From a virus: a stretch of 64,000 bases of DNA. Numbering within the stretch: position 1 is the stretch's first letter; the number at the start of each line of letters is the position of its first letter. The stretch is taken from IMG/VR virus record IMGVR_UViG_3300006310_000773. The stretch is one strand, 5' to 3'. Below the pieces are notes generated by a model. That model worked only from the letters and a program-made list of their open reading frames with translations, made no database searches and was not told where the DNA came from. Below, piece after piece: positions 1 through 20,629 of this stretch. Position numbers and translations under genes: made by a program.

Positions 1-281
1 TTTCTTTCTCGATCACCACATACAAAACATTCAAGCGGTTCTTCCCCCTTTAATAATTTTTCTCTTATTTCCAAAAGTTGTTTATCATTATAAAAAAACT
101 CCTTCAATCTTTCTTTTGCAGGAATTCCTGAAGATTTTTCACTAAACTTTGCTTTCGTGAAGCGTGCTTCACAACACATCTTAATTGAATCTTTTGATGC
201 GTTTACATAAGTATGCATAAATGGGGCGGGACAATGAAATCCCTTTTTATATTTTATTTTTTCATGAATTTCACGTCTCAT
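1..281 (-). CDS. Twitch/SPASM-domain radical SAM protein, N-terminal part (runs off the window)
   Basis: Hand translation MRREIHEKIKYKKGFHCPAPFMHTYVN..KMCCE..IREKILKGEEPLECFVC. Same CPAPFxH/CC/CxxC N-terminal motif as 1457..2833. ATGA overlap with the upstream gene. Confidence 0.8.
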   Translation of the reverse strand, partial: MRREIHEKIKYKKGFHCPAPFMHTYVNASKDSIKMCCEARFTKAKFSEKSSGIPAKERLKEFFYNDKQLLEIREKLLKGEEPLECFVCGDRER

Positions 282-1450
282 AAAAATTCCTTAATTAAAA
301 ATTTATCTTTTTCTAACCAATGTCCAACTTGATTTACTGGTATTCCTCCACGTCGGACATAAAAATTATCAATATCATTTAATTTATTTAATAATTCAAT
401 TTGCTTAGTACATCTATAATATAATCCCATATATACTGCAGTGGGTCGATATTGAAAAATATTACTTAACCACATCAATTTTGTGCCCGAATTTTCATCC
501 TCATCATGTTTAGAAATAAAATCATGAATAGAAAATCTTGAATCCAATAAATCTACATGATCATAATATAAGTTTACATTATCTTTAAATTCATTAAACC
601 AGGATAACCAACTCTGCATTCCTCCAAAATAATCAGTATACTTTTCAAATTCCCCATCTTTTATTTCACTAGCTCCATCCAAAACATCTACACTACTAAT
701 AAAATCTTTATAATTTAATCCATTCCAATTTTCATGTATTTGTTTCATCATATATAATGAATATTCATTACTATCAAAAAATACTAATTTCAAGTCTTTA
801 GTATAACCTGTATCTTTTAAAATTTTTAAATGATTAAGTCCACAAGCTACTGTATAAAATACAGATACATCTTTTATAAAATGATGAGAATGAATAGATG
901 GTGAATTTTCTTTAGGTAAAATTGGCTCCGTATTCCAAGGAAGAAAGTTTGAAAATGTACTATCCTTTATAAAATTATAAACATCATATTGATCAGCTAT
1001 ATAAGTAAGAGTTTTTTTAATTTGAGAACTAAATTCTCTTCTTTCTTTTATTTTTGATAATAAAGGACATCCTTTAGATTTCCATTGTTTAACATTTAAA
1101 TAATATAATTCTTGATCTCCTATAAAAACATCATTATCTATAATATCTTGATCTAATTCTTGTATAAATGAATCATCCTCTGTTTCTAAATCATGTCCAA
1201 CTTTTATTATTATTGCATGATCAACTGATTTTGTTTTTAAAAATTCAAGAGCTTCAACATAAGTACCAAAAAGTTTAAAAGACTTCTCATATGAAGACGG
1301 CGGGGGATATGGATAAGGTTGGGGATTTACTTGCCAATCTAATTCCAAAAACCAATATTCTGTTAAATTTTTATGAAGACCTTTAACAACAGGATCAACA
1401 TTATTTGAATTGTCAATCCAACAAATAAAATATTTTCTTTTTAATTCCAT
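278..1450 (-). CDS. Hypothetical modification enzyme with an MTase/Rossmann-like C-terminal half; paralog of the N-terminal region of 5279..9517
   Basis: Shared motifs ACGLNH..LVFFDSNEYSL..WLSNIF versus SAGFVGNH..VIFYDISGPAL..WVSNVY. Confidence 0.5.
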   Translation of the reverse strand: MELKRKYFICWIDNSNNVDPVVKGLHKNLTEYWFLELDWQVNPQPYPYPPPSSYEKSFKLFGTYVEALEFLKTKSVDHAIIIKVGHDLETEDDSFIQELDQDIIDNDVFIGDQELYYLNVKQWKSKGCPLLSKIKERREFSSQIKKTLTYIADQYDVYNFIKDSTFSNFLPWNTEPILPKENSPSIHSHHFIKDVSVFYTVACGLNHLKILKDTGYTKDLKLVFFDSNEYSLYMMKQIHENWNGLNYKDFISSVDVLDGASEIKDGEFEKYTDYFGGMQSWLSWFNEFKDNVNLYYDHVDLLDSRFSIHDFISKHDEDENSGTKLMWLSNIFQYRPTAVYMGLYYRCTKQIELLNKLNDIDNFYVRRGGIPVNQVGHWLEKDKFLIKEFL

Positions 1451-1456
1451 AATTAA

Positions 1457-2833
1457 TCATATTAAATATCGTTCAAGTTGTGGTGTAATATCTAAAACAT
1501 TCGTTTTTCTTAATTTATCTGCTAATCTGGTATGTTTAATAAATTGCTCTTTATTATATTTTATATTAGGTAACATCCATCTATCACCTCTTTTTTCAAG
1601 ATCATCTGGTAACTTGTCTACAAATTCTGAATCTTTTCTATAATGACTTACATCTTTATTAAGATCTGAATATACTTGCTGAAAACATTCTTGTTCTTCT
1701 TCATTAATATTATAATCATATATTACTCTCTCTATTTCACTTCTAATAAAATCTTTATGATCATCATCTAACCAATGTATATTTAAATGCATTGGTTCAA
1801 CTATTGGATGTAGTGCCGGTGGATCTATAAATTCAAATCTACGGCTTTGCTCTATCATCCATGCAACATGATTGTAAATATGGAAAATATTATATACATT
1901 TATTACACTATTAAATCCTATACTATTAATATTTGGTAATTCACACGCTTTTAAGAAATTAGTATGAACTCTTTTCCACTCACATCCTGTTCTACAATAT
2001 TCAAAAACTTTTCCCAATCCATCAACACTAAACCGCAATTGTAACCCTTTAAATTGAGAAAGAAGATCAATAACTTTCTTAGGCCAAACTGTACCATTAG
2101 TAATTAAATGTAGTTGTATATTTTTAGCATCACCATGTTCAACTAACTGTTTCCATATTTTTATACAACTTGGATCTATAAATGTTTCTCCTCCAGACAT
2201 TTTTAACCAACGGACACCTTCAAGATTATAATTATCATATAATCGAGAATTATCTTGATCCCAATCAATAGATTCAGCCATTTTCATTTGCCACGGATTA
2301 TCAGTCCACATATCCCAATATGTACCTTCTAATAAATCATAATTATCTAAAACTTCCTTTTCTATTTTACTACTCCAAATACTACTACAAGATCGACATT
2401 TGGCATTACATAATTTTCCTGGTCGCAAATCTATGTCTATTGGATGGTCATATATATTTCCTGTTTCAACATTAAATCCCATATTATCCATCGTAATACC
2501 TTCTGGTGCATATCTGTTTATAAAATCAATTCTAGCACTTTCTCTTTCAGCACCAATTTCTTCATAATGCTTACAATAATTACAAGGATTTGAACCATCT
2601 TCTAAAACGGGCCATTCATTTTTTAAAAAAGCTTCTCTAACAGTTTTAATCTTATCACTTGACCACCATTTTTCTTGTTGATTGGCTACAGTATCCCCTT
2701 CTCGAATTGCCGGTGTATCAATTCTATCCATAATATCACTCATACAACATAATTTAAAAGCACTATTACCCATACTAGTATAGGTGTGTAAAAATGGTGC
2801 AGGGCAGAACACCTTCTTGATTTGCTCTTTCAT
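1457..2833 (-). CDS. Twitch-domain radical SAM protein
   Basis: CPAPF..LCC..CNYC N-terminal domain; CNAKCRSC; MSGGET; ITNGT; FSVDG. Confidence 0.9.
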   Translation of the reverse strand: MKEQIKKVFCPAPFLHTYTSMGNSAFKLCCMSDIMDRIDTPAIREGDTVANQQEKWWSSDKIKTVREAFLKNEWPVLEDGSNPCNYCKHYEEIGAERESARIDFINRYAPEGITMDNMGFNVETGNIYDHPIDIDLRPGKLCNAKCRSCSSIWSSKIEKEVLDNYDLLEGTYWDMWTDNPWQMKMAESIDWDQDNSRLYDNYNLEGVRWLKMSGGETFIDPSCIKIWKQLVEHGDAKNIQLHLITNGTVWPKKVIDLLSQFKGLQLRFSVDGLGKVFEYCRTGCEWKRVHTNFLKACELPNINSIGFNSVINVYNIFHIYNHVAWMIEQSRRFEFIDPPALHPIVEPMHLNIHWLDDDHKDFIRSEIERVIYDYNINEEEQECFQQVYSDLNKDVSHYRKDSEFVDKLPDDLEKRGDRWMLPNIKYNKEQFIKHTRLADKLRKTNVLDITPQLERYLI

Positions 2834-5292
2834 AATTTTCCTTGTCTTCTTGCTTTTAATGCTTCGCGGATTCCAATTTTAACATACTTTTCATCATCTA
2901 AAAAATGCAAACTAGTATCTTTCCATTCTGGCATTTTTTCAAATCCATCCCACATTTCCGTTAAAATCCAAGGGAATTCATGTGGACCTAACGCTACATG
3001 CATACATTTTGTTTCATATAATTTAAATTCTTTGCAAAGTTCTTTATGCCAGTTTAAATATTTATTAGGTATAAAATCACATGAAAAATTATTCATTTGA
3101 TGATTCGCTATATGCGCCATTGATAATGTTAAATGATTATAATCATTTGTTACAGCAATTGTACCATCAGTAAAATTACTATATCTAATTCCTATCCTCG
3201 AATGACCTAATCCCAAACTTTTACTTAAACTAAAACACACTTCTTTTATGGCAGGATGATTAACATCTATAGTAATATCATAACATGTACCATACCACGC
3301 ACAATCAATAAGTACTGGTACATCTTTTTCTAAACATGAATCGAGAGTTTCTTGTAAAAATGGAACTTGATTCCCATTTCCACAAAATGGCATACTAATT
3401 ATAACCCAATCATTTTTTTGTATTGGTTCTTGAATATCGTCGTGGGGATATTCCGTATCTATAAATTCCCATTCATTAAAGATTCTTCTATGATAATGAT
3501 ATTCCCCTCGATAAAATCTCAATCTTCTATCTTTATATCTAAAATAACTTTCATCAAGTGCTTGAGTAGTACCTATAATTATATGCTTTTGTTTGAATTT
3601 GTCTAATCCTTTTATTTTATTTAATTTTGTTGATTTAATCCATGAGTCTATATTTTTTAAAAACTCTTCTTTACATTCCCAAAATCCCGAAGCTTCAAAT
3701 TCCTCTTTCCAAGGTAATTCACCTAATGATTTTTGAAAATTTGGATCAAAAATTGCGTGGTGCTTATCTTTGAATAATATACTATTCTCTTTTAAAATTC
3801 TTTTTTTCCTCGGATAATTTATATTTTTTAAATGTGCATAAATTGGTTCAGCTATCTCAGGTAAAGATTCTCGAAAATTCTGTGATCTATACTTATCAAG
3901 TGCCTCAGTACGATCAATAAACTCTCTAATATGATATGATTCATCTTGTGCCCACATATATTTTAAAATAGAATTTAAACAATTCGTTGTTACATCTATT
4001 ACATAATCATTATCCACAATATTCTCATAATGTTTCCACACCTTTCTCTGTTCTATTAATTTGGGAAACCTTTCTAAAAAACTTTCATATTTAGATTGAA
4101 CTAATAGTTTTATTCGTTCTGGCAAACATCTAATATTATAATATAATGGATTATGTAAATGGTGCATACTAAAAAACATATGTTTACCATTTATATTAAA
4201 TCTTTTAAAATTTTGTTCTATTGTCCATTCTATTAATTCAGGAATATTCAATACATTAAAAACTTGAACTGTTGTAGTAAACCATCCATTTATATTTGGA
4301 ATTTGATCAATCTTATGAACCGTTTTTTCAATTTTTTTCCAATTACTCGGAAAGCGTATATATTCATTAACATCTTTAATACCATCAACACTTCCGCCCA
4401 ATTCAACAAGTCTAAAATGTTTCCATAATTCAAATGCCTTATCAGGTATATTAACTAAATTAGTATTATAATCTAATGCAATACGCTTAGATCTACCTGT
4501 GTCAATAAATTTTTGCAATAATTCATAATTAGCTTTCGCTATAGTAGGTTCTCCACCACTAATATGAATCATTTCAATATTAGGGGCATTTTCAACTATT
4601 TGATTAAAAATATCACCACGTTCATGCCAACTATAAGGATCAAAACCATCTATACATATTTGACCTTGTTTATCCTTTTTTAAATACAAATACTTATCAT
4701 CTGCTGCATCATGTCTAAATCTATTCCATCCAAAAGCATTATACCAATCATCTTTCCAAGGGCTACTTTCTGTCGGTCCGCACATTCTACATTTTAAATT
4801 GCACAAATTCCCCAATCTAATATCAGTATGTAAAATAGGTGAAGAGAAGTCAATAGATCCGTCTGATTTTGTTAAATTTTTAGCGTCATCTATAGTAAAA
4901 GACTGTAGGGTTTTGTCTTCAACTAAAGGCTTTTCCCACGAAGGACATTGTAATTCAATTTGTCCTTCTCGCAATGCCCTCTGCTCATATCTTCTTCTAT
5001 CCACAACTCTTCTACTTTGTTGTCCCGCATCTTCTTCCTCATTACATCTTTGACATACTGGATGCCTTTCACCTTTTAACATAGATGATCTAACGTCTTT
5101 TAATAATTTACAATTTCTTGCTTCATTTATAGAAGCATTATCAGCTGTCATTATTTCATTATTATCTTTTCTGCAAACTCCTCTAGTTTTTCTATGAGTA
5201 TTTGCTTGAACACACATACGATATTGTCCATTATTATTAATACTAAAACTAGTCCAAGGGACGGGACAATAACTTATATTATTTGTATTCAT
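2830..5292 (-). CDS. Twitch radical SAM fused to a C-terminal PLP-dependent aminotransferase-like domain
   Basis: CPVPW..CQRC; CNLKCRMC; SGGEP; C-terminal LIDCAWYG..FSLSKSLGLGHSRIG (fold-type I PLP lysine motif). Confidence 0.85.
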   Translation of the reverse strand: MNTNNISYCPVPWTSFSINNNGQYRMCVQANTHRKTRGVCRKDNNEIMTADNASINEARNCKLLKDVRSSMLKGERHPVCQRCNEEEDAGQQSRRVVDRRRYEQRALREGQIELQCPSWEKPLVEDKTLQSFTIDDAKNLTKSDGSIDFSSPILHTDIRLGNLCNLKCRMCGPTESSPWKDDWYNAFGWNRFRHDAADDKYLYLKKDKQGQICIDGFDPYSWHERGDIFNQIVENAPNIEMIHISGGEPTIAKANYELLQKFIDTGRSKRIALDYNTNLVNIPDKAFELWKHFRLVELGGSVDGIKDVNEYIRFPSNWKKIEKTVHKIDQIPNINGWFTTTVQVFNVLNIPELIEWTIEQNFKRFNINGKHMFFSMHHLHNPLYYNIRCLPERIKLLVQSKYESFLERFPKLIEQRKVWKHYENIVDNDYVIDVTTNCLNSILKYMWAQDESYHIREFIDRTEALDKYRSQNFRESLPEIAEPIYAHLKNINYPRKKRILKENSILFKDKHHAIFDPNFQKSLGELPWKEEFEASGFWECKEEFLKNIDSWIKSTKLNKIKGLDKFKQKHIIIGTTQALDESYFRYKDRRLRFYRGEYHYHRRIFNEWEFIDTEYPHDDIQEPIQKNDWVIISMPFCGNGNQVPFLQETLDSCLEKDVPVLIDCAWYGTCYDITIDVNHPAIKEVCFSLSKSLGLGHSRIGIRYSNFTDGTIAVTNDYNHLTLSMAHIANHQMNNFSCDFIPNKYLNWHKELCKEFKLYETKCMHVALGPHEFPWILTEMWDGFEKMPEWKDTSLHFLDDEKYVKIGIREALKARRQGKL

Positions 5293-8200
5293 TATACAAC
5301 TCCTTTAATTCAGGAAAAATTATACTAAAATTAAGTTGTCTAATATTTTCTAAATTTTGTATGTATTCAAATGTCTGTGGCAATAAATTAGATTGATCCT
5401 CAGACCACATAAATTCAATTAATGATTTTAATTTTTTAATTCCATTTGGTTTTTCCAATACTCGATCATAATATTCAAAATTTTCTTCCAACCATTTATA
5501 AAAATCATTATATTTGTCTGAAATTTTTTCTTTATATTCTTTTGTTAAACATTTTACACTTAAAAAATTAGGACTATGTAAAAAATGAATTCCTATCATT
5601 CCTCCATGTTCAGGCCATTTATTTATTTCAGAAATTTCATCTTGTGTCAATTTCCATTTAATAAAATCTGGTATGTGCATTATATTAAAAATACTCGCAG
5701 TCGTGTCTATATTAATTTTTATATGTTCATTATTTTTTGCAAAATTATTATATTTTATAAGATTTTGCATTGTCGTATCCAATTTACTAGGATATCTTAA
5801 CCATTCATGACGCTTCTCAACACCATCCAGACTCACAGCAATTTCTACTAATGATAACCTCTTTAACATCGAAAATAATTTATCATCAATTTCTTCAGCA
5901 TTTGTATTAAAGCGTAAATTTGTTGTTTTTGGAGAATTTTTAATAAAATCCTTAAATTCGTTTATAATTGTAGGTTCACCTCCTAATATATACGCATCTG
6001 ATATTGGTTGCTCTGATAACTCTTTCCAAGTTTGTTCATTCTTATACCAATTATATCCACCATTTTGATCCTTCCCCTTAGACCAACTTAATTTGTTTTG
6101 TAAATCTGAACTTATATTACTATTCTTCATTTTTGTCCAATCCTTTATCCAAAAACTACTATCATCTGGATTACAAGTTGAACAGGCTAAATTACACTTA
6201 TTTCCTAGTTTTAAATCAACATAATGAATTTTTGCTGGTGCTTCTCCATCATCTTTAGTATGCCACACAATCGAATTATAATCCAATTTTTTCTTCCATT
6301 TTTTATTTTCCCAAATACGTTTGCTATTATATCCAACTTCTTCTTCTTTGTAACATTTTTGACATTCTCGTGGTTTATTTCCTTTAATCATTTCTGAACG
6401 CACATTTTTCATATAATTGGTATTCCAATAATCTTTCCAATTATCATGTTTTAAATTAACCAATTGACCATCATCTTTTCTATTACAACCTATTTGTGGA
6501 TGTTCATCATCACTACTACTATTAGCTGTACAACATAATTGCATATTGCCTGTAGTTCTAGTACTTAAATGCATCCAAGGCAAAATACAAAATCCACTAT
6601 CCTCTTTTTTCCAAGGCGCGGGTGGTGCATTATCTAAATAATCAATCATCTCTGATGCTAAATGATTTTTATATTGTTGATTTCTAATATTATCATAAAA
6701 TCTAGTTGTTTTCTTTAATTGATAATGTTTTAAATCTTTTATATTATTGATAATTGTATTTTTAACAAAATTCTGAAAGAATTTTAAACGTGGTTTAATT
6801 CCTACAACTTCTTTTGTATTTGCTTCAAATTTTTCTAAAGCTAATTTTAATAAATCATGATCAATAAATTCAGAATTCAATTCACTACTTTGTGGTATCA
6901 TTTGGAAATCAACAGCCACATCTATCATTGCATCAGGGCCATCATGTTCTGAAAGATTTGTATAATATTTTTTATATAACTCGTCTGCCCATTTATAAAT
7001 ATCATCCAAATTAAATATGTTATATGGTTGAGCAACTATAGAAAATCCTACTGAAACCCTGTTTTGTAAATATTCCTTTTCTTTAAAATGACTAAACATT
7101 AAATTAACACTCTTATTCAACATATCCCAATTAAAAGGATACCGAATATAATCATAAAGCTTATCAGTACCATCTATAGAAATTCTAAAACGACAAAATT
7201 TAAAATGTGAAATTTTTTCTAATAAATCTGAATTAAATTTTGTACCATTAGTAGTTAAATCTAATACTATATTTTTAGCATAATCATTTTTTATAGCATA
7301 ATCAACTGCATTTAAAAATTTATGATTAACTGTTGGTTCCCCACCAGTAACCTTTAAAACTTCTAATTCTGGTAAAGCGGAAATAACATCTTGTTCTAAA
7401 AATGGTTTTTCAGCATGAGATGATAATCTATGAGACAATTCTTTTTTATACTTATTATTATTTTCATATTCACCATAATCAAAATGATTTGGTATGCGTT
7501 TACCATCATTGACTTGAATGAGTAATTCCTTTTGATGTTGATCACTACTACCTGCGCTACACATTCTACATGCTAAGTTACACTTATTATCATACTTTAT
7601 ATCTAAATATTTTAATTTTGGTTTTTTCAAATTAAATGTATCAATATTATCCGCAAATCTCCCATTCATGGCAATTCGTAAACTTGCGATTCCCATATCT
7701 TCTCTTTTCCAACACGTTGAACAAATATTTGGTCTTTCATTATTTAAAAATTGTTTTCTTATTTTATTCATTTCTGGACTATAAAATGCATCTTTAATTG
7801 TAGCAACATTTGCATGTAATGCATCTTGGGATGTAACATCTTTTGAATCACTACCCACTCGTAAATTTTTATTACTGTCACAACATACTCGATACCAACC
7901 AGCCACACTTGATGTCATATGTATCCACGGCAATATACAAAAATTTTTTGTAGGAATATTTATGTTTTCCTGTAAAAACTTTTTTGTATATATTTCACCT
8001 TGTAAAACTTTTCGACCAAAACTATTATATATTCGTTCTGAATCATCATCATCTAATTTAATATCAGGTAAAAATCCGTACACATATACTTGATCATTTA
8101 ACTTAGAAATAAGTTTTTTTAATTGCTTAAAAATATTTGAATAATTTTTATGTTCCCATAATGCATATTCATTAGCATAAACATTACTAACCCATATAAA

Positions 8201-9517
8201 TGTATTTCCTTTGAGATTATTAATTTCATTAACCTGCCAACCCTCATAATTATTTAAAATGTCCCATCGCCAATATTGATGTTGTTGTCTATTCTTTACA
8301 AATGTTTCCCAATGTTGTACAAAATTTTCTAATCCTCCCCATCTAGTACATTCTTCTGTCCATAACTCATCAAATTCTATAATATCATCACAAAATTCTA
8401 TTAAACTATCCTCACTATTTGAATTATCTTTAAATTTTATATCAACCAATTCATTAAATATATCTTTAAATGTTTGTTTTTTTAGATTCCAATGTTCTGA
8501 CAATAATCTCTTAAAAGATAAAGCGGGTCCACTTATATCATAAAATATAACATTTTCTTTTCCTGAATAATTAAAAGTATTTAAAATATGATTTCCAACA
8601 AATCCTGCAGATAATACCACATAATTATCAAATTGTTTTGGTGCATTTATTCTTTCTAATAAGTTATAAAAATTATTTTCAGGTATTTCTGTTGGATATG
8701 GTTCTGAATTAAATGCATATAATTTACTAGAATATCCTCTAGTTGTAAGTGAAGTTTGATATCTAACCTTAGTTTCCATATCATTAAGCATTTTTTTATC
8801 TTGCTGTACTTCATCCAAATAAAAATATTCTTTACTTTCTCTTATTTTATAATTAAATCCTTCAACATTATATCCATATTTAAAAACTGTATTTAAAAAG
8901 TTCCACCCCCATCCCATACGTGATCCCTTTTCAATTTTTTTCATTTTTAATTTATAATCTCTCGGCTTTAACCATAGAGGTGTATAATCATCATGAAAAT
9001 CTTCAACACATCTTTCAGGTTCATATAATTCTTCTATTGTCAAAATACTAGAAGTGTGCAGGTCAGGGCAATGAATATCTTTATAAATTTCCAAATTTAA
9101 AAACATCATTTGAGGATGTATACTATACCAATTTCTATTCAAATGAATTCTACTTTTAGCATCATTGTCAACAATATGACAAAGCATAGCTGTATTTGGA
9201 GAAGCTTCTGCTTGTTCAATCAAATAAAAACACGTATCATGACTAAGACGATGCCCCGGTTTTTGAATTAATGCATATTTCCTCTCACTAGATAATGCAT
9301 CTTTGATACATTCTTGTAAATCATTATTTTCACTGTAATATATGTTTGCATGAATGTTGGCCAATTGTCCTTGAAGCTTCGATTTTGTAAACTGATCTGC
9401 AAGATCAAGTAAATATGGATCATCAATCTCATCTTCCCAATCAGAAAAAGTTCTCCAATAGCAAAAATAAATTTCTTTTTCAGCTATCTCATTTAATACT
9501 TTATTAGAATTTAACAT
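5279..9517 (-). CDS. 1412-aa multidomain enzyme: N-terminal GT/MTase-like region plus two tandem twitch radical SAM modules
   Basis: Two FCILPWxH..CC..CxxC modules with CNLACRMC and CNLACSTC, each followed by GGEP and S(I/L)DG. Confidence 0.88.
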   Translation of the reverse strand: MLNSNKVLNEIAEKEIYFCYWRTFSDWEDEIDDPYLLDLADQFTKSKLQGQLANIHANIYYSENNDLQECIKDALSSERKYALIQKPGHRLSHDTCFYLIEQAEASPNTAMLCHIVDNDAKSRIHLNRNWYSIHPQMMFLNLEIYKDIHCPDLHTSSILTIEELYEPERCVEDFHDDYTPLWLKPRDYKLKMKKIEKGSRMGWGWNFLNTVFKYGYNVEGFNYKIRESKEYFYLDEVQQDKKMLNDMETKVRYQTSLTTRGYSSKLYAFNSEPYPTEIPENNFYNLLERINAPKQFDNYVVLSAGFVGNHILNTFNYSGKENVIFYDISGPALSFKRLLSEHWNLKKQTFKDIFNELVDIKFKDNSNSEDSLIEFCDDIIEFDELWTEECTRWGGLENFVQHWETFVKNRQQHQYWRWDILNNYEGWQVNEINNLKGNTFIWVSNVYANEYALWEHKNYSNIFKQLKKLISKLNDQVYVYGFLPDIKLDDDDSERIYNSFGRKVLQGEIYTKKFLQENINIPTKNFCILPWIHMTSSVAGWYRVCCDSNKNLRVGSDSKDVTSQDALHANVATIKDAFYSPEMNKIRKQFLNNERPNICSTCWKREDMGIASLRIAMNGRFADNIDTFNLKKPKLKYLDIKYDNKCNLACRMCSAGSSDQHQKELLIQVNDGKRIPNHFDYGEYENNNKYKKELSHRLSSHAEKPFLEQDVISALPELEVLKVTGGEPTVNHKFLNAVDYAIKNDYAKNIVLDLTTNGTKFNSDLLEKISHFKFCRFRISIDGTDKLYDYIRYPFNWDMLNKSVNLMFSHFKEKEYLQNRVSVGFSIVAQPYNIFNLDDIYKWADELYKKYYTNLSEHDGPDAMIDVAVDFQMIPQSSELNSEFIDHDLLKLALEKFEANTKEVVGIKPRLKFFQNFVKNTIINNIKDLKHYQLKKTTRFYDNIRNQQYKNHLASEMIDYLDNAPPAPWKKEDSGFCILPWMHLSTRTTGNMQLCCTANSSSDDEHPQIGCNRKDDGQLVNLKHDNWKDYWNTNYMKNVRSEMIKGNKPRECQKCYKEEEVGYNSKRIWENKKWKKKLDYNSIVWHTKDDGEAPAKIHYVDLKLGNKCNLACSTCNPDDSSFWIKDWTKMKNSNISSDLQNKLSWSKGKDQNGGYNWYKNEQTWKELSEQPISDAYILGGEPTIINEFKDFIKNSPKTTNLRFNTNAEEIDDKLFSMLKRLSLVEIAVSLDGVEKRHEWLRYPSKLDTTMQNLIKYNNFAKNNEHIKINIDTTASIFNIMHIPDFIKWKLTQDEISEINKWPEHGGMIGIHFLHSPNFLSVKCLTKEYKEKISDKYNDFYKWLEENFEYYDRVLEKPNGIKKLKSLIEFMWSEDQSNLLPQTFEYIQNLENIRQLNFSIIFPELKELYNEYK

Positions 9518-12415: not shown

Positions 12416-13476
12416 TATAAAAATTGTTCATTATATGCATCAAATCCTATTCCACATTTGTTAGCGCAAACTTTAAGTTTTCCATCTTTAACACTGGAAC
12501 ATGACCAAGAGTCTTCTATGGCTTTGAAAAACGGGCCGTTAACTATTTCTTTTATAGTATGTTTTCTGAGACTGATATTTTCATAATCTCCTATTAATTT
12601 CCAAATAGGTGCTTCGCGGGGTTTCCAATACCATTTATATTGTTGTCCCGCTGTCCAACAACAAGGAAACACATGCCCCTCTGCTGTAACAAATATTTCC
12701 TTCTTATTTATTGCTTTACAATTAATAGGTGTTGTATCATAATATGCATCCATGCTACCATGTTTAGCAACTAAATCTTTTTCTTTTTTTAATGCAACAT
12801 TAACAAACTCTAAACTAGGTTTTTCTAACTTCTGAGTATTTTCGCCTTTTCGATTTGTTGCTTGATGGGCGTCTTTACCTTTATGTTGAACAGTCGAAAA
12901 GAAACGTCCTGTTTTTTTAACTTGAAATTTTTCAAAGCCCATATCCATCGCCAATTGTCTTGCCTCATCTACCTGATGTTCATTATGTTTAAACACTATA
13001 AAATCCCATTTAGCATGACCACCTCGATCAATAAACGCTTTGGCATTCTCCATTACTCTTTCCCATTTAACTTTTTGCCTATATAAATGATTAGTATCCT
13101 CTAAACCATCTATACTAAATGTTACAACTACATCTATATCTGCTAAATCTTCCCAAAAATATTCTGGTTTAGCGCCTCCATTGGTATTCATACCTAACCA
13201 CATATTGGGATTAGCATTTCTAAAAGATCTAAATCCCTCGATTGCATAATTGCTTATGCATGGATCACCTAAATTACCACACATATACATAGAGTCCAAC
13301 TGTTCTACAAAATGCCAAGGAAACATTTCATAATAATCCATAGAACTTAACATTGCATTTGTGAGATAGGGATTATCTTTACCACCATTTATATTACGGT
13401 CACATTGGGGGCAAGCGGCATTACATCCCTGAGTAGGTTCAATATGAACACTTTTTATTTCATCATATCTATACAT
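12415..13476 (-). CDS. Radical SAM protein with C-terminal SPASM/twitch domain
   Basis: CNAACPQC; CGNLGDP; FSIDG; C-terminal CK..PCCW..CANKC. Confidence 0.9.
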   Translation of the reverse strand: MYRYDEIKSVHIEPTQGCNAACPQCDRNINGGKDNPYLTNAMLSSMDYYEMFPWHFVEQLDSMYMCGNLGDPCISNYAIEGFRSFRNANPNMWLGMNTNGGAKPEYFWEDLADIDVVVTFSIDGLEDTNHLYRQKVKWERVMENAKAFIDRGGHAKWDFIVFKHNEHQVDEARQLAMDMGFEKFQVKKTGRFFSTVQHKGKDAHQATNRKGENTQKLEKPSLEFVNVALKKEKDLVAKHGSMDAYYDTTPINCKAINKKEIFVTAEGHVFPCCWTAGQQYKWYWKPREAPIWKLIGDYENISLRKHTIKEIVNGPFFKAIEDSWSCSSVKDGKLKVCANKCGIGFDAYNEQFL

Positions 13477-14834
13477 AATTCTGGAAAAACTTTTTCAAAT
13501 TGTTTATGTGGTCTTAATCTATTTAAATGTGAAATATATTCTTGAAATTCGGGAAGTCTTTCAGACCAATCTTCATCATCCATGAAATTTAATAGTCCTT
13601 CATATCTTTTAATTCCATAGGATGAATTTGCCCAATCATCAAATTCTATATTTTCTACACCGGTACATAATTTCCAATTATCTTCCATCCAAGGGAAAAA
13701 CTCTTCTTCATATTTCTCTCTAATTTTATATTTTAATTCTTTTGGTATTATTTTAACATTTAATTGTGGTGGCCAATATGCCAAATGACAATTGATCATT
13801 CCTGCTCCCCCAGGCCATTTATTTATTTTCTTATATCCTTGCTGAACTTTCCAAGATATAAATTCTGGAAGATAATTAATACTCAATGCCATAATAGTTG
13901 TTGCGGTTGTTACTGTAATATTATCATCAGTCTGATCCATTAATTTTAAATTCTTTTCAATAATTTTCCATCTACTAGGATAGCGAATATAATCATTATA
14001 CTTTCCCCAACTATCTATTGAAAAATGAAATATTACATGTTTAAATTCACTCCACAACTTAAATAACTTATCTGGTAATTCAATACCATTTGAATTATAT
14101 CTTAATTCAATTTTAGGAGCATAGCCCATTTCAATTACTTTTTCAAGTAAGGTATAATGCTCGTCAATAATAGTTGATTCACCTCCTGCAAAATATAATT
14201 GATAAATGTTTGGTATTTGTTCATATAAATCTTCCCAAAAATGAGGACTCATTTTATGCCAATTATACGTTCCGCCGTCTTCATTTTTTTTCCATTGACT
14301 AGTATCTTTCAATCTTTCATTTTTTATTTTAGGATAAAAATCTAACCACTCTTTATTCCATCCAGAAGAATCATTTGGAGAACACATCACACAAGCCAAT
14401 TGACATTTACTTCCCATTCGTAAGTCAATATATCTAAGTTTGGGGGCAACTGATCCATCTTCATTTGTGTTTTTTACTAATTCATTTAAATCATAAATTT
14501 CTCCCCATTTATTAGTTTCCCAAACTCTTTTAGGAATATGGCCCGCATCTTCTTCTTTAAAACATTTTTCACATTGAGGAGGGCGTTCACCTTTCATCAT
14601 CATCAATCTAGTACGCCTCATATAATCATTATTCCACGCATCTAATAATCGAGTGGTATTTAAATTAGCACATTGGCCATCTTCATTTCTTATATTTGCT
14701 TTTGTTCTTATGGAAGAATTTGGATCTTGAACAGCAGACGCATTCGCAGTACAACATACTCTCATATGTCCGTTGGGTCTTGTTGATAAATGTATCCACG
14801 GCAATGCGCAAAAAGTGGGGGAAGGATAGTCCAT
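13455..14834 (-). CDS. Twitch-domain radical SAM protein
   Basis: FCALPWIH..VCC..CEKC; CQLACVMC; FAGGES; FSIDS. Confidence 0.9.
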   Translation of the reverse strand: MDYPSPTFCALPWIHLSTRPNGHMRVCCTANASAVQDPNSSIRTKANIRNEDGQCANLNTTRLLDAWNNDYMRRTRLMMMKGERPPQCEKCFKEEDAGHIPKRVWETNKWGEIYDLNELVKNTNEDGSVAPKLRYIDLRMGSKCQLACVMCSPNDSSGWNKEWLDFYPKIKNERLKDTSQWKKNEDGGTYNWHKMSPHFWEDLYEQIPNIYQLYFAGGESTIIDEHYTLLEKVIEMGYAPKIELRYNSNGIELPDKLFKLWSEFKHVIFHFSIDSWGKYNDYIRYPSRWKIIEKNLKLMDQTDDNITVTTATTIMALSINYLPEFISWKVQQGYKKINKWPGGAGMINCHLAYWPPQLNVKIIPKELKYKIREKYEEEFFPWMEDNWKLCTGVENIEFDDWANSSYGIKRYEGLLNFMDDEDWSERLPEFQEYISHLNRLRPHKQFEKVFPELCIDMMK

Positions 14835-14887
14835 AATTGTCTCACTAAATATTAATAATCATATACTTTTATTTATGCTATTAAAAT

Positions 14888-15640
14888 ATGACTAATTTTT
14901 TTTGTTTGAAGTGGGGAAATAAATATCCTCCAAAATATGTGAATCGATTATTCAATTCTTTAAAAATACACTATAATAATTCTTTTAATTTTCATTGTTT
15001 AACAGAAAATTCTAAAGGATTAAATAAAGATATTGAAATAAAACCAATTCCTACAACATTCGATGAATTTCCAAGAACTCAAATTTTCACTTCAGAAAAA
15101 ATGTGTTATTTTGGAGATTATGCTAACATGTCAGGTAAAAAGGCATGGTTTGATTTAGATATATTGATTCAAAATAACATAACAAAATACATACACAAAA
15201 ATCATCCAAAACCAAAATTTATTTGGAATTATTGGAGAGATTCATTGGCCTCAAAATTAAATTATGGATATTTAACAACTCCTATAAATTCTTCATTTGT
15301 TGCTTGGGATAATGATGCTGGATATGAAATGTATGAAAATTTATTAAAAACAAAAAAGGAAGCATTCTTTTCATATCCATCTTTCGATAAACTCATATTT
15401 TATCAATGTCATCGCAAAAAAATGGTAGATTTCTGGCCTCCAACCACTGCCTATAATTACAATATAGGTGCAAAATTTCCAAATGATATGACTCCAAAAG
15501 AATATAAAAAACGTTATAAAATATGTCTATTCAATACTTCACATAAAGCATGGGCAAAAGAACATGAACAACATGTAGAATTGCATGATGCACAAGGATG
15601 GGCAAAAGAATTATGGGAAAGTTATAATGTCATCTTATGA
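14888..15640 (+). CDS. Phage GT-A fold glycosyltransferase
   Basis: CLKWGNKY..YVNRL, FHCLTE, WFDLD (DxD), INSS. Confidence 0.75.
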   Translation: MTNFFCLKWGNKYPPKYVNRLFNSLKIHYNNSFNFHCLTENSKGLNKDIEIKPIPTTFDEFPRTQIFTSEKMCYFGDYANMSGKKAWFDLDILIQNNITKYIHKNHPKPKFIWNYWRDSLASKLNYGYLTTPINSSFVAWDNDAGYEMYENLLKTKKEAFFSYPSFDKLIFYQCHRKKMVDFWPPTTAYNYNIGAKFPNDMTPKEYKKRYKICLFNTSHKAWAKEHEQHVELHDAQGWAKELWESYNVIL

Positions 15641-16160
15641 AACTTTATTAAAAACAAAACATAAAAAATTTAAATATTTAATTGAATATTCTAATAATAA
15701 AGATGTTCAAAAAATATCATGGCGAGTATTTGACGAAATCATGATACATTATGAAGAAGAGCCCGTACATTTTTTATGTAGTTGGTTCTGTCATATAGAA
15801 GTGGATGATTTTGAATTATTCGGTTATAAGTGCTATTATTATGATATAGATCCTATGGTATGCAAAATTAATAAATTAATAACAAAGAATGTTATTAATA
15901 AAGATGTCATATTTGATGATGTTAAAATAGAAGACGGTATAATTGTAAATAAATATTGTGAAACATGTTATCCTGTTGGTAGAAAGTTCTCAGGAAAGTT
16001 TGTTTTAGTTGGTTCTGATAATCCACATCTATCTTGTATTAATCCGATAAATAGTTGTCAACAAATTATAGATCAAAATCAATTAACAACAATTCATTAT
16101 AAAACTGAAATAAAAGGTAAACATAATTATTATTTGGTGGTAGGATGCAATCAACTATAG
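15627..16160 (+). CDS. Hypothetical protein, possibly a degenerate class I methyltransferase
   Basis: Likely start MSSYETLL overlapping the upstream stop. Motifs CSWF, YYDIDP, VNKYCE, CINPINS..IIDQNQ parallel the downstream MTase-like gene. Confidence 0.5.
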   Translation: MSSYETLLKTKHKKFKYLIEYSNNKDVQKISWRVFDEIMIHYEEEPVHFLCSWFCHIEVDDFELFGYKCYYYDIDPMVCKINKLITKNVINKDVIFDDVKIEDGIIVNKYCETCYPVGRKFSGKFVLVGSDNPHLSCINPINSCQQIIDQNQLTTIHYKTEIKGKHNYYLVVGCNQL

Positions 16161-17038
16161 AAAAATTAAAAAAATTTGAAGATAATATTGAAAAGAAAAA
16201 TCAAGAAATTAGAGATTCTGCAGGAAATATTAGAAAAACTATTGGAAAATTAAAAAATGATGTTAGAAAAACTATTGGAAAATATAAAACAAATATTGGA
16301 AAAAATAAAAAACATGTAAGTGATACCACAAAAAAAATTAATAAATTACCATATCATAAAATAGAACAATGGATAATAAACAATCAGGTTGGTAGTTTAG
16401 AAAGTTATCAAGATTCTTTATCACATGGACAATTATCTTCAAAACAATGGTTAGTTAACAAATTACCCAAAGGAAAAGATTTATATCTTGAAGTTATTTC
16501 AGACGGAACGCCAACTATTTTAGGATATACACAACATTTGCCTTTGGTCAATAGTGAAGGTAATACTGACCCATACCCTGAATCATCTTTATATATTGAA
16601 ATTATTGGTGGATGGTTTGGTTGTCCATTAATAGATCTGTTACATTCTAAATTAGAAATAAAAAAAATAGACTTTTATGAAAAAGATGAATTATGTAAAA
16701 AAATATTAGCACAATATCTAAATCATTTTGAATTTCCCTTTGAGGTTTCTATTTTCGGAGATTTTTTTGAAAGAAAAGAAATTAGACGTAGAGATTTAAT
16801 CATTAATACCTCAGGAGAACATATGGAAGATATTATAAAAATGAAACATTATTTTAAAGGAAATCCTGTAGTTGCTATACAATCAAATGATTATTTTGGA
16901 TTAGATGAACATATCAATTGTGTTCATAATGTTGAAGAATTAATTGAAAAAAATCAAATTAAAAATGTGGTATATAAAGGTGAATTAGATTTTCCAAAAT
17001 ATACAAGATATATGACCATAGGTCACTGGTATGTTTAA
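16145..17038 (+). CDS. Class I SAM-dependent methyltransferase-like protein with basic N-terminal repeats
   Basis: GQLSSKQWL, IIGGWFG, IINTSGEHM, QSNDYF..HINC, RYMTIG. Confidence 0.65.
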   Translation: MQSTIEKLKKFEDNIEKKNQEIRDSAGNIRKTIGKLKNDVRKTIGKYKTNIGKNKKHVSDTTKKINKLPYHKIEQWIINNQVGSLESYQDSLSHGQLSSKQWLVNKLPKGKDLYLEVISDGTPTILGYTQHLPLVNSEGNTDPYPESSLYIEIIGGWFGCPLIDLLHSKLEIKKIDFYEKDELCKKILAQYLNHFEFPFEVSIFGDFFERKEIRRRDLIINTSGEHMEDIIKMKHYFKGNPVVAIQSNDYFGLDEHINCVHNVEELIEKNQIKNVVYKGELDFPKYTRYMTIGHWYV

Positions 17039-17666
17039 ATATGCGGTTGCATGTATATGTGTTGGTGACAAATACAATGTAAAAGATGTAAAACGTTTAG
17101 AAAAAATGGTTTTTGAAAATACCACATATAATATAAACTTTCGAGTATTTGATGAACCTATTCTTCCCAAATGGTGGACTAAAGTTTTATATCATTCCCC
17201 AATGATAGAACCATTTGAAGAAGAAGTCGTTTTAGCTTTTGATTTAGACGTGATCATAAAAGGAAACATAGATCCCCTATTTGATTGGGTAGAACAACAA
17301 GATTATTTGTGTGCATGTTGGTGTAGGTGGAGAGAACATATGGAAGATTTTGAAAAACGCCGGTCACAAAAAGAATGTTGCACCCCCTATAACTCTTCTA
17401 TATTAGGATGGAAACCAAACAGCAGTTTAAAAGTGTGGGAGAAATTTGAATTTGAAGATATTGAAAAATGTGGTGGATTTGATACATATCTTTGGATGAA
17501 ATATCTTGATCCCATTCGTATACCAGACCATTTTTATTATTCTGCTAGTTATTCTAATTATCAAGAATTAGATTATCCAATAGCCATTTTTAATAAAGGA
17601 TATTCTGATGGACTAGAAAAGGAAGAAATATATTCTACTGTTCCTTGGACTAAAAAATATATCTAA
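17031..17666 (+). CDS. GT-A fold glycosyltransferase, paralog of 14888..15640
   Basis: CVGDKY, WWTK, AFDLDVII, YNSSILGW. Confidence 0.72.
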   Translation: MFKYAVACICVGDKYNVKDVKRLEKMVFENTTYNINFRVFDEPILPKWWTKVLYHSPMIEPFEEEVVLAFDLDVIIKGNIDPLFDWVEQQDYLCACWCRWREHMEDFEKRRSQKECCTPYNSSILGWKPNSSLKVWEKFEFEDIEKCGGFDTYLWMKYLDPIRIPDHFYYSASYSNYQELDYPIAIFNKGYSDGLEKEEIYSTVPWTKKYI

Positions 17667-18334
17667 TACCAAACACCATTAGGACTTTCATGAACTAATC
17701 CTATATCCTCTTTTAAAACTTCATTACAAAATTCCACATCATCATGAAAATCATTATTCATCATAAATCCTATTGAAAATCTATTACAGTCCGTTCCTGC
17801 ACAATGCCAAGCATATTCTTTTTTTTCTTCAACATGATCTAAATGACTAGTAATTTTCATAGATTTAATATTCCATCCTGCAGAATCTTGATATTCTTCA
17901 ATTTTTTTTGAATCACCATAAACTTTAAAAATACCATCACCTGTTTCTGACCAAGAAAATATTATATTTTTGCCTGGGATATTCGCATTATGATGCCAAG
18001 CAATATATCCACCAGGAGGATAATGTTGACATAAAGGACTTCTTCTTGCTCCCACTAAAGAAGCTAATTTAGTTGACAATTTTAAAAGTTCTTCATGAGG
18101 TTCAGAAGCTTCCAGACCAAAATCATTTGATAATATATGTGTAGGCCCGCCAGAGCCTGAATCACCTTCCATTATATTAAACAAATATTCATCAGAAATA
18201 GCCTCTTCTTTTGAAATTATTTCTCTTTTATTTCTATCTTCAATATTTCCATCACTTTTAATAAAATCGAATACAAAAGGTTCAAATAATTTTAAAATTT
18301 TTAAAATATCTTGTGGTATATCTTTTTCAATCAT
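17663..18334 (-). CDS. 2OG-Fe(II) oxygenase-like (cupin) protein
   Basis: YPPGGYIAWHHN, WHCAGTDCNRFSIGF. Confidence 0.65.
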   Translation of the reverse strand: MIEKDIPQDILKILKLFEPFVFDFIKSDGNIEDRNKREIISKEEAISDEYLFNIMEGDSGSGGPTHILSNDFGLEASEPHEELLKLSTKLASLVGARRSPLCQHYPPGGYIAWHHNANIPGKNIIFSWSETGDGIFKVYGDSKKIEEYQDSAGWNIKSMKITSHLDHVEEKKEYAWHCAGTDCNRFSIGFMMNNDFHDDVEFCNEVLKEDIGLVHESPNGVWY

Positions 18335-19058
18335 GCCAACCTGTTCCTTTGGGATAACTTAAAAATACAATATCTGAATAATTAACATTTTCTATTTCAC
18401 AATCATATCCTGGTGCTGTAAAATTCCATAAACAATCGTCATTTTTTGTTGTATTAAAATACCAATTCCATTTTATATCATTTCTGTACCATTCATCTTC
18501 TTTATCACATAACATTAAATGTAATGGAAATTGATCCCACATTTCAACAGGACCTTTCTCATATTTAAAATCCCATCTTGAATGCCAATTATGCTTCATC
18601 TTCCATTGCCAATTATTCCACCATTCCTCCATAAATGTTTTCATTTTTTTATTATTTTTCCAAACAAAAGCACCACCATGAGGTCTTTCTTCTTCATGAA
18701 TGTTCCACCAACATGCTGATGCACAATAAGGTCTAATTTTCGTAAAAACTATATCATTATCACAAAGTGCTTCAAATACATTATTTGCATTGTCTGATAA
18801 ACAAACTACATCAGCATCTAAAAAACATGTAATATCATAGGGGGTTTTTGTTAATGCCCACAATTTAGCCCTGATTGTTTTAGGAGCACCACCAATAACA
18901 TTGTCAAATATATGATTTCCTGGATCTAAGATCCATTCATTGTCAGTAACTAATGTGATTGGATATTGTGTATATTCTTTTATGCTGTCGGCGAGGAGTT
19001 GTGCCGCAGTAAGAAATCTTTTATTTTTGGAAGCGACAACAAGAAATCCATTATTCAT
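18327..19058 (-). CDS. Glycosyltransferase (GT8-like nucleotide-diphospho-sugar transferase)
   Basis: Likely start MNNGFLVVAS overlapping the upstream stop; AKLWALTKTPYDITCFLDAD; WDQF. Confidence 0.75.
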   Translation of the reverse strand: MNNGFLVVASKNKRFLTAAQLLADSIKEYTQYPITLVTDNEWILDPGNHIFDNVIGGAPKTIRAKLWALTKTPYDITCFLDADVVCLSDNANNVFEALCDNDIVFTKIRPYCASACWWNIHEEERPHGGAFVWKNNKKMKTFMEEWWNNWQWKMKHNWHSRWDFKYEKGPVEMWDQFPLHLMLCDKEDEWYRNDIKWNWYFNTTKNDDCLWNFTAPGYDCEIENVNYSDIVFLSYPKGTGWHD

Positions 19059-19518
19059 TTTCTTCAATTGCTGGTTTGAGAACATTTCCCCATTCAGTAA
19101 GACCATGAATTGGATCACTGATTGATTTTAGTAATAATACAGTAACCCATGCATTTAATTCTACAAGATTTGTTGATTTTCTTATTTTGGAACGAAGAAT
19201 TTTATCTTTAGACTCTTTCACTTCTGATATTTCAAATGCTTTTAATTTTGTATCAAATAATGTTTTTAAATCATCTTGAGCTTTATCTGATTCTTCTTCT
19301 TTTTTTTGATTTATTATTTTTCTTTGAGAATGGGCATGTGAGAAATCATCTATTTCTTTAGGAGTAAATTTTTTGAAAAATTCTTCCCAATGTTCTGTTC
19401 CTACAGAGGTTTGTATCGAATATGTATCATCATCATTTGCGTTTTTTAATAAAATTGCAATAGAGGTTTTTTCAGAATTAGTCCAAATTCCTTCAACCAC
19501 TTCATCACTAAATATCAT
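19051..19518 (-). CDS. Hypothetical protein (possible fibre-associated chaperone)
   Basis: 155-aa ORF directly downstream of the YxGQ protein, with helical C-terminus LFDTKLKAFEISEVKES..KIRKS. Confidence 0.55.
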   Translation of the reverse strand: MIFSDEVVEGIWTNSEKTSIAILLKNANDDDTYSIQTSVGTEHWEEFFKKFTPKEIDDFSHAHSQRKIINQKKEEESDKAQDDLKTLFDTKLKAFEISEVKESKDKILRSKIRKSTNLVELNAWVTVLLLKSISDPIHGLTEWGNVLKPAIEENE

Positions 19519-19534
19519 AATTTATCCTATTATA

Positions 19535-20629
19535 TTATCCAATTCTCTTATAAAGATTATAAGCGTTTATAACGTTAGAGCTTCCATCATTTTGAATTGT
19601 AGCTCCTGTCCAATACCCAGTATATTGTCCAGTATATTGCCCGCTATATTGTGTACCATATTGTCCAGTATACCACGGCCCGTATCGAGCTCCACCAAAA
19701 TTTCCATATTGTACTCTATATTGTCCTGACCACTGACCAGTATATTGTCCGGTATATTGTCCGCTATATTGTGTAGAATATTGTTGATTTGCTACAGAAC
19801 ACATATAGTCAGTGAATCCCCCAACTTGTGTCCAAGTTCCAGATCCAGATGCTGATCCCGTTTTTATTTCATAATCTCCCACATTATTTCCACCACTGCC
19901 TCCAGTAATACGATTTATCCAATGTGCGACTAATGTTTCTATTTCCGCATCTGTCATTTCTTGAACATCTCCACCAGTTCCCTTATATTTTACTGGTTGA
20001 AAGCTTCCCACACTACCTGTAGAAGTTTTTCTCCAAAGATAAATATTTGTGCTATGTGAATCTTGTGCGGTGGTTTGTGCATAGTCTATATGTTCTCCAC
20101 CAGAAGGGGGGTTAGTTCCTGTTGTAACATTTATCCACGTTCCTCCTAATGAACCTGAGGGCTCGCTTGCTCCCAAATAATATGTACCAACTCCTGTATT
20201 ACTTCCCGTTAAAACATATACTTCTTGACAACATCTCATAATATCATCTACCAATTTAGCGGCATTCATTTCTTGTAAAACGCCCGATCCTTCCCAAGCT
20301 AAAGGCCACACCTCTCCTCCTGTGGCTTCTGCAGAATTATCATTCGCTGCAAGACCATATTCACTGATTGTAGAAGATCCACTACCAGTAGGATGATACC
20401 CCACAGCATCATCTCTTTTAGTATCAATGAAGTATCCTAAATTTCCAGTTGTAGTTGTTGCTCTTAATTGAATGTTTCCGCGTTGTGCATCAGATTGGTC
20501 ACTTGCCCATTTTGCTAAAATAACAGGAACAATTTTATCCTTTATATCAGCATCTGTCATTTCTCTTAAACTGCTGTTACCTGGGTCTAAATCTGATACC
20601 CACAACGGTCTGTTATCACCTGCCGCCAT
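19535..20629 (-). CDS. Putative virion/fibre protein with a C-terminal (Y/W)xGQ repeat hairpin
   Basis: G/S/T-rich; three internal repeats (LREMTDADI, LQEMNAAKL, VQEMTDAEI); QYSTQYSGQYTGQYTGQWSGQY..WYTGQYGTQYSGQYTGQYTGYWTG. Confidence 0.7.
   Translation of the reverse strand: MAAGDNRPLWVSDLDPGNSSLREMTDADIKDKIVPVILAKWASDQSDAQRGNIQLRATTTTGNLGYFIDTKRDDAVGYHPTGSGSSTISEYGLAANDNSAEATGGEVWPLAWEGSGVLQEMNAAKLVDDIMRCCQEVYVLTGSNTGVGTYYLGASEPSGSLGGTWINVTTGTNPPSGGEHIDYAQTTAQDSHSTNIYLWRKTSTGSVGSFQPVKYKGTGGDVQEMTDAEIETLVAHWINRITGGSGGNNVGDYEIKTGSASGSGTWTQVGGFTDYMCSVANQQYSTQYSGQYTGQYTGQWSGQYRVQYGNFGGARYGPWYTGQYGTQYSGQYTGQYTGYWTGATIQNDGSSNVINAYNLYKRIG
19604..19786 (-). repeat. Degenerate 12-bp coding tandem repeats (tattgtccagta-like) in two arms
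   Basis: Visible in the DNA; encodes the 4-residue Y-x-G-Q periodicity. Confidence 0.85.

Follow-up and report, generated by a model that had tools for sequence, protein, structure and literature searches.

The left end of a 64,000-nucleotide stretch of viral DNA (IMG/VR virus record IMGVR_UViG_3300006310_000773; the whole stretch is referred to as the window) carries a dense array of genes for radical S-adenosylmethionine (rSAM) enzymes, followed by a small group of genes around a tyrosine-rich repeat protein (Table 1). The source is an uncultured marine T4-like myophage resembling the pelagimyophages, with a baseplate protein gp6 that is 39% identical, and a VrlC homologue that is 36% identical, to the proteins of Pelagibacter phage HTVC008M. 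Genes with structural PHROG matches directly continue the repeat-protein gene, and baseplate and tail matches occupy the 30–50 kb part of the window.

A second IMG/VR contig, G001, is 98% identical across window positions 1–19999 and reaches about 16 kb further left, with a T4 neck protein and gp15 at its left end. The variable island thus sits between VrlC and neck gp14 and, with a VrlC homologue on one side and G001 ending in neck genes, the region is therefore the hypervariable host recognition cluster of pelagimyophages. This cluster was defined between VrlC and gp14 by Zaragoza-Solas et al. 2020 as a hypervariable, glycosyltransferase-bearing region (PMC7029224), and the locus described here shares its position, hypervariability and glycosyltransferase (GT) content; rSAM cassettes are mentioned just in passing, for the host recognition clusters of some genomes (PMC7029224). 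Unlike the window phage, the cultured reference HTVC008M carries four 2-oxoglutarate (2OG) oxygenases and no rSAM gene at this site. We conclude that window positions 1–14834 together with about 16 kb of G001 constitute an accessory island of about 28–31 kb inserted in a hypervariable neck/tail-fibre site, with a G+C content of 27–30% vs. 33–36% in the structural genes. Neither the DNA of the island nor that of the structural region matched any of 50,697 phage records.

The island encodes nine rSAM domains, comprising six of the N-terminal twitch (N-twitch) type, two rSAM/SPASM domains, one of them split between genes, and one of a 343-amino acid (aa) type. Its remaining enzymes are a pyridoxal 5'-phosphate (PLP) enzyme fused to an rSAM domain, an AspH-like oxygenase, methyltransferase-like proteins, a PP-loop enzyme and adenylate-forming enzymes. 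The G001 extension contributes the 343-aa rSAM, the PP-loop protein, two adenylate-forming enzymes, methyltransferases, TctA and an epimerase, while the island proteins within the window are all predicted to be soluble, with zero predicted membrane segments. Inside the island, at G001 (L004) 4722–7275, the gene for the 11-helix TctA transporter adjoins that for a 371-aa protein whose N-terminus carries a signal-like segment, and the pair might serve to take up a carboxylate precursor.

N-twitch enzymes and the rSAM-PLP fusion

Five island genes, four in the window and one in G001, match the NCBIfam family NF033640 (N_Twi_rSAM, N-terminal twitch rSAM; curated cut-off 170 bits) with six domains and scores of 251–569 bits. 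Seven CxxxCxxC motifs were located in six complete window genes (Table 1), all of which are matched by the Pfam Radical_SAM profile, the gene at 1457–2833 at 20.7 bits and hence under the 29.5-bit cut-off. In an alignment of N-twitch relatives (A1), residues C9, C27, C28, C88, C91, C144, C148 and C151 are invariant. The island proteins resemble the NF033640 family in their Cys-rich N-terminal twitch region and CxxxCxxC motif and differ from it in that one protein is fused to a PLP domain and another carries tandem domains behind an N-domain of 500 aa. The six N-twitch domains are 22–38% identical to each other, as against 55–62% to orthologues elsewhere. This divergence marks them as old paralogues that have differentiated, and not as products of recent duplication. 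Sequence and profile searches of the PDB with this family returned nothing usable, the match to SkfB in the profile search being weak, and a literature search found no paper characterising the function of the family.

The domain map of the 1412-aa tandem protein was obtained by BLAST. Its first 500 residues show a weak colinear BLASTP likeness to the neighbouring 390-aa protein (E 0.039 across 265 aa), suggesting that the two may be paralogues; a Rossmann-like motif was also seen in this N-domain.

The PLP domain of the 820-aa fusion protein (339 aa) was modelled by AF2 with a pLDDT of 84 and has the fold of a fold-type I enzyme, matching class I/II aminotransferases in Foldseek with a probability of 1.0 (E 7.5e-10). 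Across 28 sequences of the family, the Schiff-base lysine K210, within an SxSK motif, and the pyridine-binding aspartate D182 are invariant, although Pfam and PDB sequence searches gave nothing significant. In Bdellovibrionota and in other phages the PLP and N-twitch domains are encoded by separate neighbouring genes, with 24 of the 32 PLP genes lying next to one for an N-twitch enzyme.

The minus-strand genes overlap, leaving zero intergenic space for a precursor peptide gene, and the first gene of the operon, that of the anchor N-twitch rSAM used in the surveys below, is preceded by a T4-type late-promoter-like motif, CATAAATA, which is found also upstream of baseplate genes. The operon may thus be expressed late. 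The sequence TATAAATA is depleted across the window (6 copies vs. about 16 expected by chance), and two of the six copies lie just upstream of tail or baseplate genes, a placement that fits late-promoter use.

Table 1. Genes and signals of the rSAM island, the repeat-protein module and the adjoining structural region of the window
Feature	Position	Strand	Evidence and remarks
N-twitch rSAM, C-terminal end	3..281	-	Truncated; complete in G001 as 434-aa gene (L004:15452-16756), 263 bits to NF033640
390-aa protein, family unassigned	278..1450	-	No Pfam or NCBIfam match
N-twitch rSAM (NF033640)	1457..2833	-	251 bits; CxxxCxxC at residue 142
Fusion of N-twitch rSAM (residues 1-482) and fold-type I PLP domain (482-820), 820 aa	2830..5292	-	336 bits to NF033640; CxxxCxxC; AF2 and Foldseek
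1412-aa protein: N-domain (about residues 1-500), then two N-twitch rSAM domains	5279..9517	-	569 bits to NF033640 in two stretches; CxxxCxxC at residues 646 and 1108
AspH/LpxO-type Fe/2OG oxygenase	9504..10157	-	PF05118, 45.1 bits vs. 22.6-bit cut-off
SPASM-only piece of split rSAM/SPASM gene, 102 aa	10150..10458	-	PF13186, 24.1 bits
457-aa open reading frame between the two split-gene pieces	10455..11828	-	No family match
rSAM-core-only piece of split rSAM/SPASM gene, 196 aa	11825..12415	-	PF04055, 37.5 bits; CxxxCxxC at residue 18
rSAM/SPASM enzyme	12415..13476	-	PF04055, 34.6 bits, and PF13186, 24.2 bits, above Pfam cut-offs; CxxxCxxC
Anchor N-twitch rSAM, first gene of the operon	13455..14834	-	396 bits to NF033640; CxxxCxxC
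Late-promoter-like motif CATAAATA, T4-type	14870..14877	-	35 nt upstream of the operon's first ATG; read in sequence
GT-A-like protein, DLD motif	14888..15640	+	Family recurs 2-4 times beside the repeat-protein module; in 18/53 repeat-protein loci
191-aa protein	15585..16160	+	No match in family searches
Class I methyltransferase-like protein (MT1a)	16145..17038	+	Atlas 0.95 to class I methyltransferase clusters
GT-A-like paralogue, DLD motif	17031..17666	+	Relatives group with the 14888-15640 family
P4H-like double-stranded beta-helix protein, H-x-N...H + Arg	17663..18334	-	AF2 pLDDT 80; Foldseek E about 2e-4
GT-A glycosyltransferase-like protein (Nucleotid_trans/GT8-like; GT8/GT77 type)	18327..19118	-	Atlas 0.96-0.97
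155-aa charged protein, conserved repeat-protein partner	19051..19518	-	No family match
Fibre-like repeat protein	19535..20629	-	Three ~100-aa units with QEMTDAEI motif, then Y-x-G-Q repeats, then conserved C-terminal tail
Structural PHROG match	20643..21629		
Structural PHROG match	22140..24584		
VrlC homologue	24795..30806		

Distribution of the N-twitch set and the repeat-protein module

At about 60% identity the anchor N-twitch protein has more than 2300 metagenome clusters, and relatives at 55–62% identity were found in at least 364 viral contig loci and 63 loci of species-representative genomes, the latter at about 55%. Nearly all of the 63 genome loci are from Bdellovibrionota, with a few from the candidate phyla radiation and from marine metagenome-assembled genomes, and the core rSAMs are 52–59% identical to Bdellovibrionota chromosomal genes. 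Three Bdellovibrionota genomes (G002–G004) have 8–10 N-twitch genes each, whereas 0 of 14 control genomes have any. Searched against the 50,697 phage records, the anchor gave just four weak tblastn matches.

Partners were surveyed by clustering all open reading frames (ORFs) from 143 loci and are counted here for 75 viral and 63 bacterial loci. An rSAM/SPASM gene accompanies the anchor in 75/75 viral and 49/63 bacterial loci, and the methyltransferase-like family MT1a, represented in the window by a plus-strand gene, in 72/75 and 40/63, respectively; the 343-aa rSAM is present in 45 of the 63 bacterial loci. Many of the surveyed loci also have a PLP enzyme, a PP-loop enzyme, a short-chain dehydrogenase/reductase or a carbamoyltransferase, and the number of rSAM genes per 20 kb locus has a median of 5 and a maximum of 11. 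No non-enzyme family common to viral and bacterial loci emerged from the ORFs of at least 90 aa that were surveyed. Judged from these sequences, the minimal conserved set is the N-twitch rSAM, the rSAM/SPASM enzyme and a methyltransferase-like pair. The initial annotation had seen here a pathway resembling a biosynthetic cluster rather than scattered metabolic genes, and this view is supported.

In viral loci the rSAM genes stand in same-strand arrays with a DegT aminotransferase, UDP-Glc/GDP-Man dehydrogenases, a cupin, a cytidylyltransferase and a carbamoyltransferase. In the bacterial clusters, several GT2 genes are accompanied by those for a GT-C-like membrane protein, an FAD amine oxidase, a PP-loop enzyme and an AspH-like protein, and in genome G002 five of the 11 GT2 genes lie inside a 36-kb N-twitch cluster.

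The repeat protein belongs to a family (the window protein and those of L153–L205) whose members are 330–1800 aa long and have aromatic repeats with a period of four residues ([YF]-x-G-x; as many as about 50 motif matches in a protein), three QEMTDAEI-type units and a conserved C-terminal tail ending in L-W-[LK]-R-[TI]-A. Tyr, Gly, Ser and Thr are abundant in the window protein, which finishes in consecutive Y-x-G-Q units before its tail; it had zero matches among the 50,697 phage records, and the family is not found in records of cultured phages. At each of 53 loci with distant homologues (25–36% identical) the gene lies shortly downstream of VrlC, followed by genes for the 155-aa protein (44/53), the GT-like protein (43/53) and the hydroxylase-like protein (43/53); often a convergent block comes next, made up of two to four genes for GT-like proteins and one for a methyltransferase-like protein. 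Lack of co-occurrence with the repeat protein had been named beforehand as grounds for refutation, and it applies to the rSAMs but not to the GT and oxygenase: N-twitch rSAMs occur in 0/53 and an rSAM/SPASM gene in 2/53 of the distant repeat-protein loci, and, outside near-identical phages, the repeat protein is in 0/75 of the N-twitch loci. It was likewise not found near the core rSAM orthologues of Bdellovibrionota. In two of the repeat-protein loci (L154 and L156) the hydroxylase-like gene is followed by one small ORF and then directly by neck genes. The rSAM island has thus been inserted next to a conserved fibre-protein module, and since the repeat-protein loci lack N-twitch rSAMs yet 43 of them keep the small protein, the GT and the oxygenase-like gene, the locus consists of two units: a mobile rSAM island with a predicted role in sugar tailoring, and a conserved module of fibre protein, GT and hydroxylase-like protein.

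The hydroxylase-like protein of this module has a double-stranded beta-helix fold. Structure comparison (VIA) gave Z scores of 9.4–9.9 over about 150 residues to P. putida prolyl 4-hydroxylase (P4H), PHD2 and PhyA, with which ALKBH7 and PiuC tie to within 1 Z. Residues H113, N115, H176 and R184 are invariant in the family, and in 31/31 sequences Asn stands at the position of the iron-binding Asp, so that the protein lacks the canonical H-x-D/E...H iron triad, while the Arg that would bind 2OG is kept; the H-x-N...H spacing presumably matches that of PHD2. The protein may therefore not be a standard Fe/2OG hydroxylase.

Taken together, these results uphold much of the gene content that the initial annotation had read from the window, namely seven CxxxCxxC rSAM domains with a truncated eighth gene, a PLP domain, methyltransferase-like proteins and a Tyr-repeat protein, all continuous with tail-fibre genes. 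Its two 2OG-Fe oxygenases fared unequally, the AspH-like protein being confirmed by Pfam (a PDB sequence/profile search gave nothing usable) and the P4H-like protein by its fold and not by its iron triad. Three GTs had also been proposed: DxD motifs are read in all three proteins, and the Atlas assignment supports that of the repeat-protein module, but none has a Pfam match of its own. A pooled Pfam scan of 86 relatives from four small-protein families gave five GT8 and four GT2 matches, not assignable to any one family. The SGNH hydrolase assigned to the 457-aa ORF is an unverified label, the sole motif seen being GCSYVYG, without GDS(L)...DxxH blocks.

Among the remaining genes, the two pieces of the split rSAM/SPASM gene correspond to one gene in a contig labelled Planctomycetota (L008), where an unsplit orthologue spans both. 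In the window the core gene, the 457-aa ORF and the SPASM gene are all linked by 4-nt overlaps. The intervening ORF had no Pfam, NCBIfam or PDB match and just seven relatives, all unannotated; a homing endonuclease was considered and rejected, with no nuclease motif and no family match supporting it. The intact rSAM/SPASM enzyme is at most 52.5% identical to its relatives in the genome collection (the best, L049, labelled Neisseriaceae). Adjoining the methyltransferase-like gene nearly always, and sometimes fused to it, is the gene of a 229-aa family with a VDGDA motif (MT1b; L140:757–1443 and relatives), which has about 2400 clusters at about 60% identity and no annotation anywhere. Its motifs give it a GT-A-like look, which is a lead only, as hhalign against a Pfam-confirmed GT2 alignment gave just 2.4% probability; PDB sequence/profile searches with MT1a and MT1b yielded nothing usable.

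Proposed sugar tailoring and competing explanations

From the observed gene content, family membership, folds, distribution and synteny, we propose, at a probability of roughly 0.5, that the island represents one form of an enzyme set that is widespread, moves laterally and uses radical chemistry to tailor a sugar or sugar-like building block. An unusual glycan was one option of the initial annotation, and we regard it as the best reading of the locus. The gene arrays, the GT2-filled bacterial clusters, the coupling to PLP enzymes and the soluble products favour the tailoring of a sugar or sugar-like unit. Each of the old rSAM paralogues would most likely catalyse one step, a C-H/C-OH oxidation, epimerisation or dehydration, and the rSAM-PLP fusion suggests an oxidation to the ketone followed by transamination, which is the logic of BtrN and its aminotransferase in the butirosin/2-deoxystreptamine pathway. 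There, too, a twitch rSAM is coupled to a PLP enzyme, here fused or adjacent. No sequence kinship is detectable beyond the superfamily, the twitch of the island enzymes is N-terminal and that of BtrN C-terminal, and the island PLP domain is of class I/II and not of the DegT type. Methylation, and perhaps acylation or amidation, would come next, and the neighbouring GT-A-type transferases would then move the product to a cytoplasmic acceptor, most plausibly a virion fibre protein.

Several points weigh against this proposal. Classic sugar-nucleotide genes within 10 kb are not universal, being present in at least 16/75 viral and at least 19/63 bacterial loci. The PLP domain is of the amino-acid type rather than the sugar type, and Pfam gives none of the three GT-like proteins of the window a significant match. 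Matches to the nearest named rSAMs (MoaA, peptide maturases, BlsE, viperin) are all weak, and SPASM/twitch rSAMs are often peptide maturases. We know of no NF033640 member with a known substrate or reaction, the family being catalogued only. The identity of the sugar substrate, product and acceptor, like the chemistry assigned to the individual steps, is predicted.

A more specific version, which we hold as tentative only, is that a radical-built, heavily edited sugar is attached, via the GT-A transferases and the prolyl-hydroxylase-like enzyme, to the period-4 aromatic-repeat fibre protein. The small module resembles hydroxyproline-linked glycosylation, as in Dictyostelium Skp1 (the prolyl hydroxylase PhyA and GT77-type transferases) and plant extensins, in that it sets a PHD/P4H-like fold and a Nucleotid_trans/GT8-like transferase beside a repeat-rich structural protein. 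It differs in that the iron-binding Asp is replaced by the invariant Asn. For decoration of the virion, the small module of repeat protein, GT and hydroxylase-like protein is a better candidate than the rSAM island.

The pathway might instead alter the lipopolysaccharide or surface glycan of the host during infection and so block superinfection. This is how the GTs of host recognition clusters have been read, in the same paper that mentions rSAM cassettes there (PMC7029224), and the homologous bacterial clusters are rich in GT2 and include the GT-C-like membrane protein. The phage island, however, is without a flippase, polymerase, ligase or Gtr-type membrane protein, its window products are predicted to be soluble, and a Wzx flippase, sought in the three Bdellovibrionota genomes, was not found within the clusters. 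Keeping in mind that the late-promoter-like signal suits virion assembly better than early host takeover, we consider envelope remodelling unlikely.

Virion protein maturation, in which the rSAMs would act like the maturases of ribosomally synthesized and post-translationally modified peptides (RiPPs), cross-linking side chains of the Y-x-G-Q repeat protein or of other fibre proteins or changing them in some other way, was the favoured idea at the outset. The common presence of SPASM and twitch domains in peptide maturases, weak NCBIfam matches to PapB, WgkB, DynA and SkfB, the position of the island beside fibre genes and its possibly late transcription would suit it, as would the Tyr-, Gly-, Ser- and Thr-rich composition of the repeat protein. 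Yet the N-twitch rSAMs and the repeat protein occur apart in the 53 and 75 loci surveyed from either side, the rSAM orthologues of 52–59% identity reside in Bdellovibrionota chromosomes without such a protein, the overlapping operon genes leave a precursor gene no room, and the partner genes encode small-molecule enzymes. The non-co-occurrence, the Bdellovibrionota orthologues and the lack of room for a precursor therefore make RiPP-like cross-linking of virion proteins quite unlikely, and this part of the initial annotation is not sustained.

Improbable, too, is a product that is diffusible and needs no glycan acceptor, a small molecule or cofactor such as an acylated or aminocyclitol-like metabolite. 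It would account for the TctA gene with its signal-peptide neighbour, the two adenylate-forming enzymes and the methyltransferases in the left part of the island on G001, and for the carbamoyltransferase and amidinotransferase-like genes of related loci, but GT-A-like genes border the island, the bacterial clusters are rich in GT2 genes, and the window has no export gene. Finally, although phage thymidine hypermodification pathways use PLP, rSAM and flavin enzymes, and the PP-loop protein has weak QueC/TilS-like matches beside weak viperin/QueE-like ones, synthesis of a hypermodified DNA base or tRNA nucleoside by the rSAM, PLP, PP-loop and methyltransferase enzymes is very improbable, since no DpdA/Tgt, hydroxymethylase or DNA kinase occurs in the island or related loci and the company of GT2 and sugar-nucleotide genes suggests a different role.

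Implications for phages and Bdellovibrionota

N-twitch rSAMs are abundant in metagenomes, on hundreds of viral contigs and in many Bdellovibrionota, yet no reaction is known for any of them. The search is narrowed by the minimal conserved set, by the rSAM-PLP fusion, which serves as a Rosetta stone, by the GT2-embedded bacterial counterpart and by the recognition of a separate module of fibre protein, GT and hydroxylase-like protein. These also supply constructs for enzymology and for the study of virion glycosylation in marine phages, a little-explored topic.

T4-like phages with many rSAM genes have been described before, from the environment (Nishimura et al. 2017; PMC5332604) and from Campylobacter (Timms et al. 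2010; PMC2853527), with 11–12 rSAM genes of unassigned role that were called unusual. Those reports give counts alone, without a conserved set, a bacterial counterpart or a link to sugar enzymes. New here are the recognition of two separate units in the locus, the fusion of rSAM and PLP domains, the counterpart in Bdellovibrionota with its GT2 enrichment, and the conserved association of the repeat protein with a GT and an HxN hydroxylase-like protein.

That a phage spends about 30 kb on rSAM enzymes implies a strong selective benefit. If a tailored sugar is indeed placed on the fibre protein, this would be the phage equivalent of the glycosylation of flagellin or pilin. As the pathway is common to the phage and to predatory Bdellovibrionota, a glycan coat may be a device shared by predators of bacteria for adhering to their prey or evading recognition.

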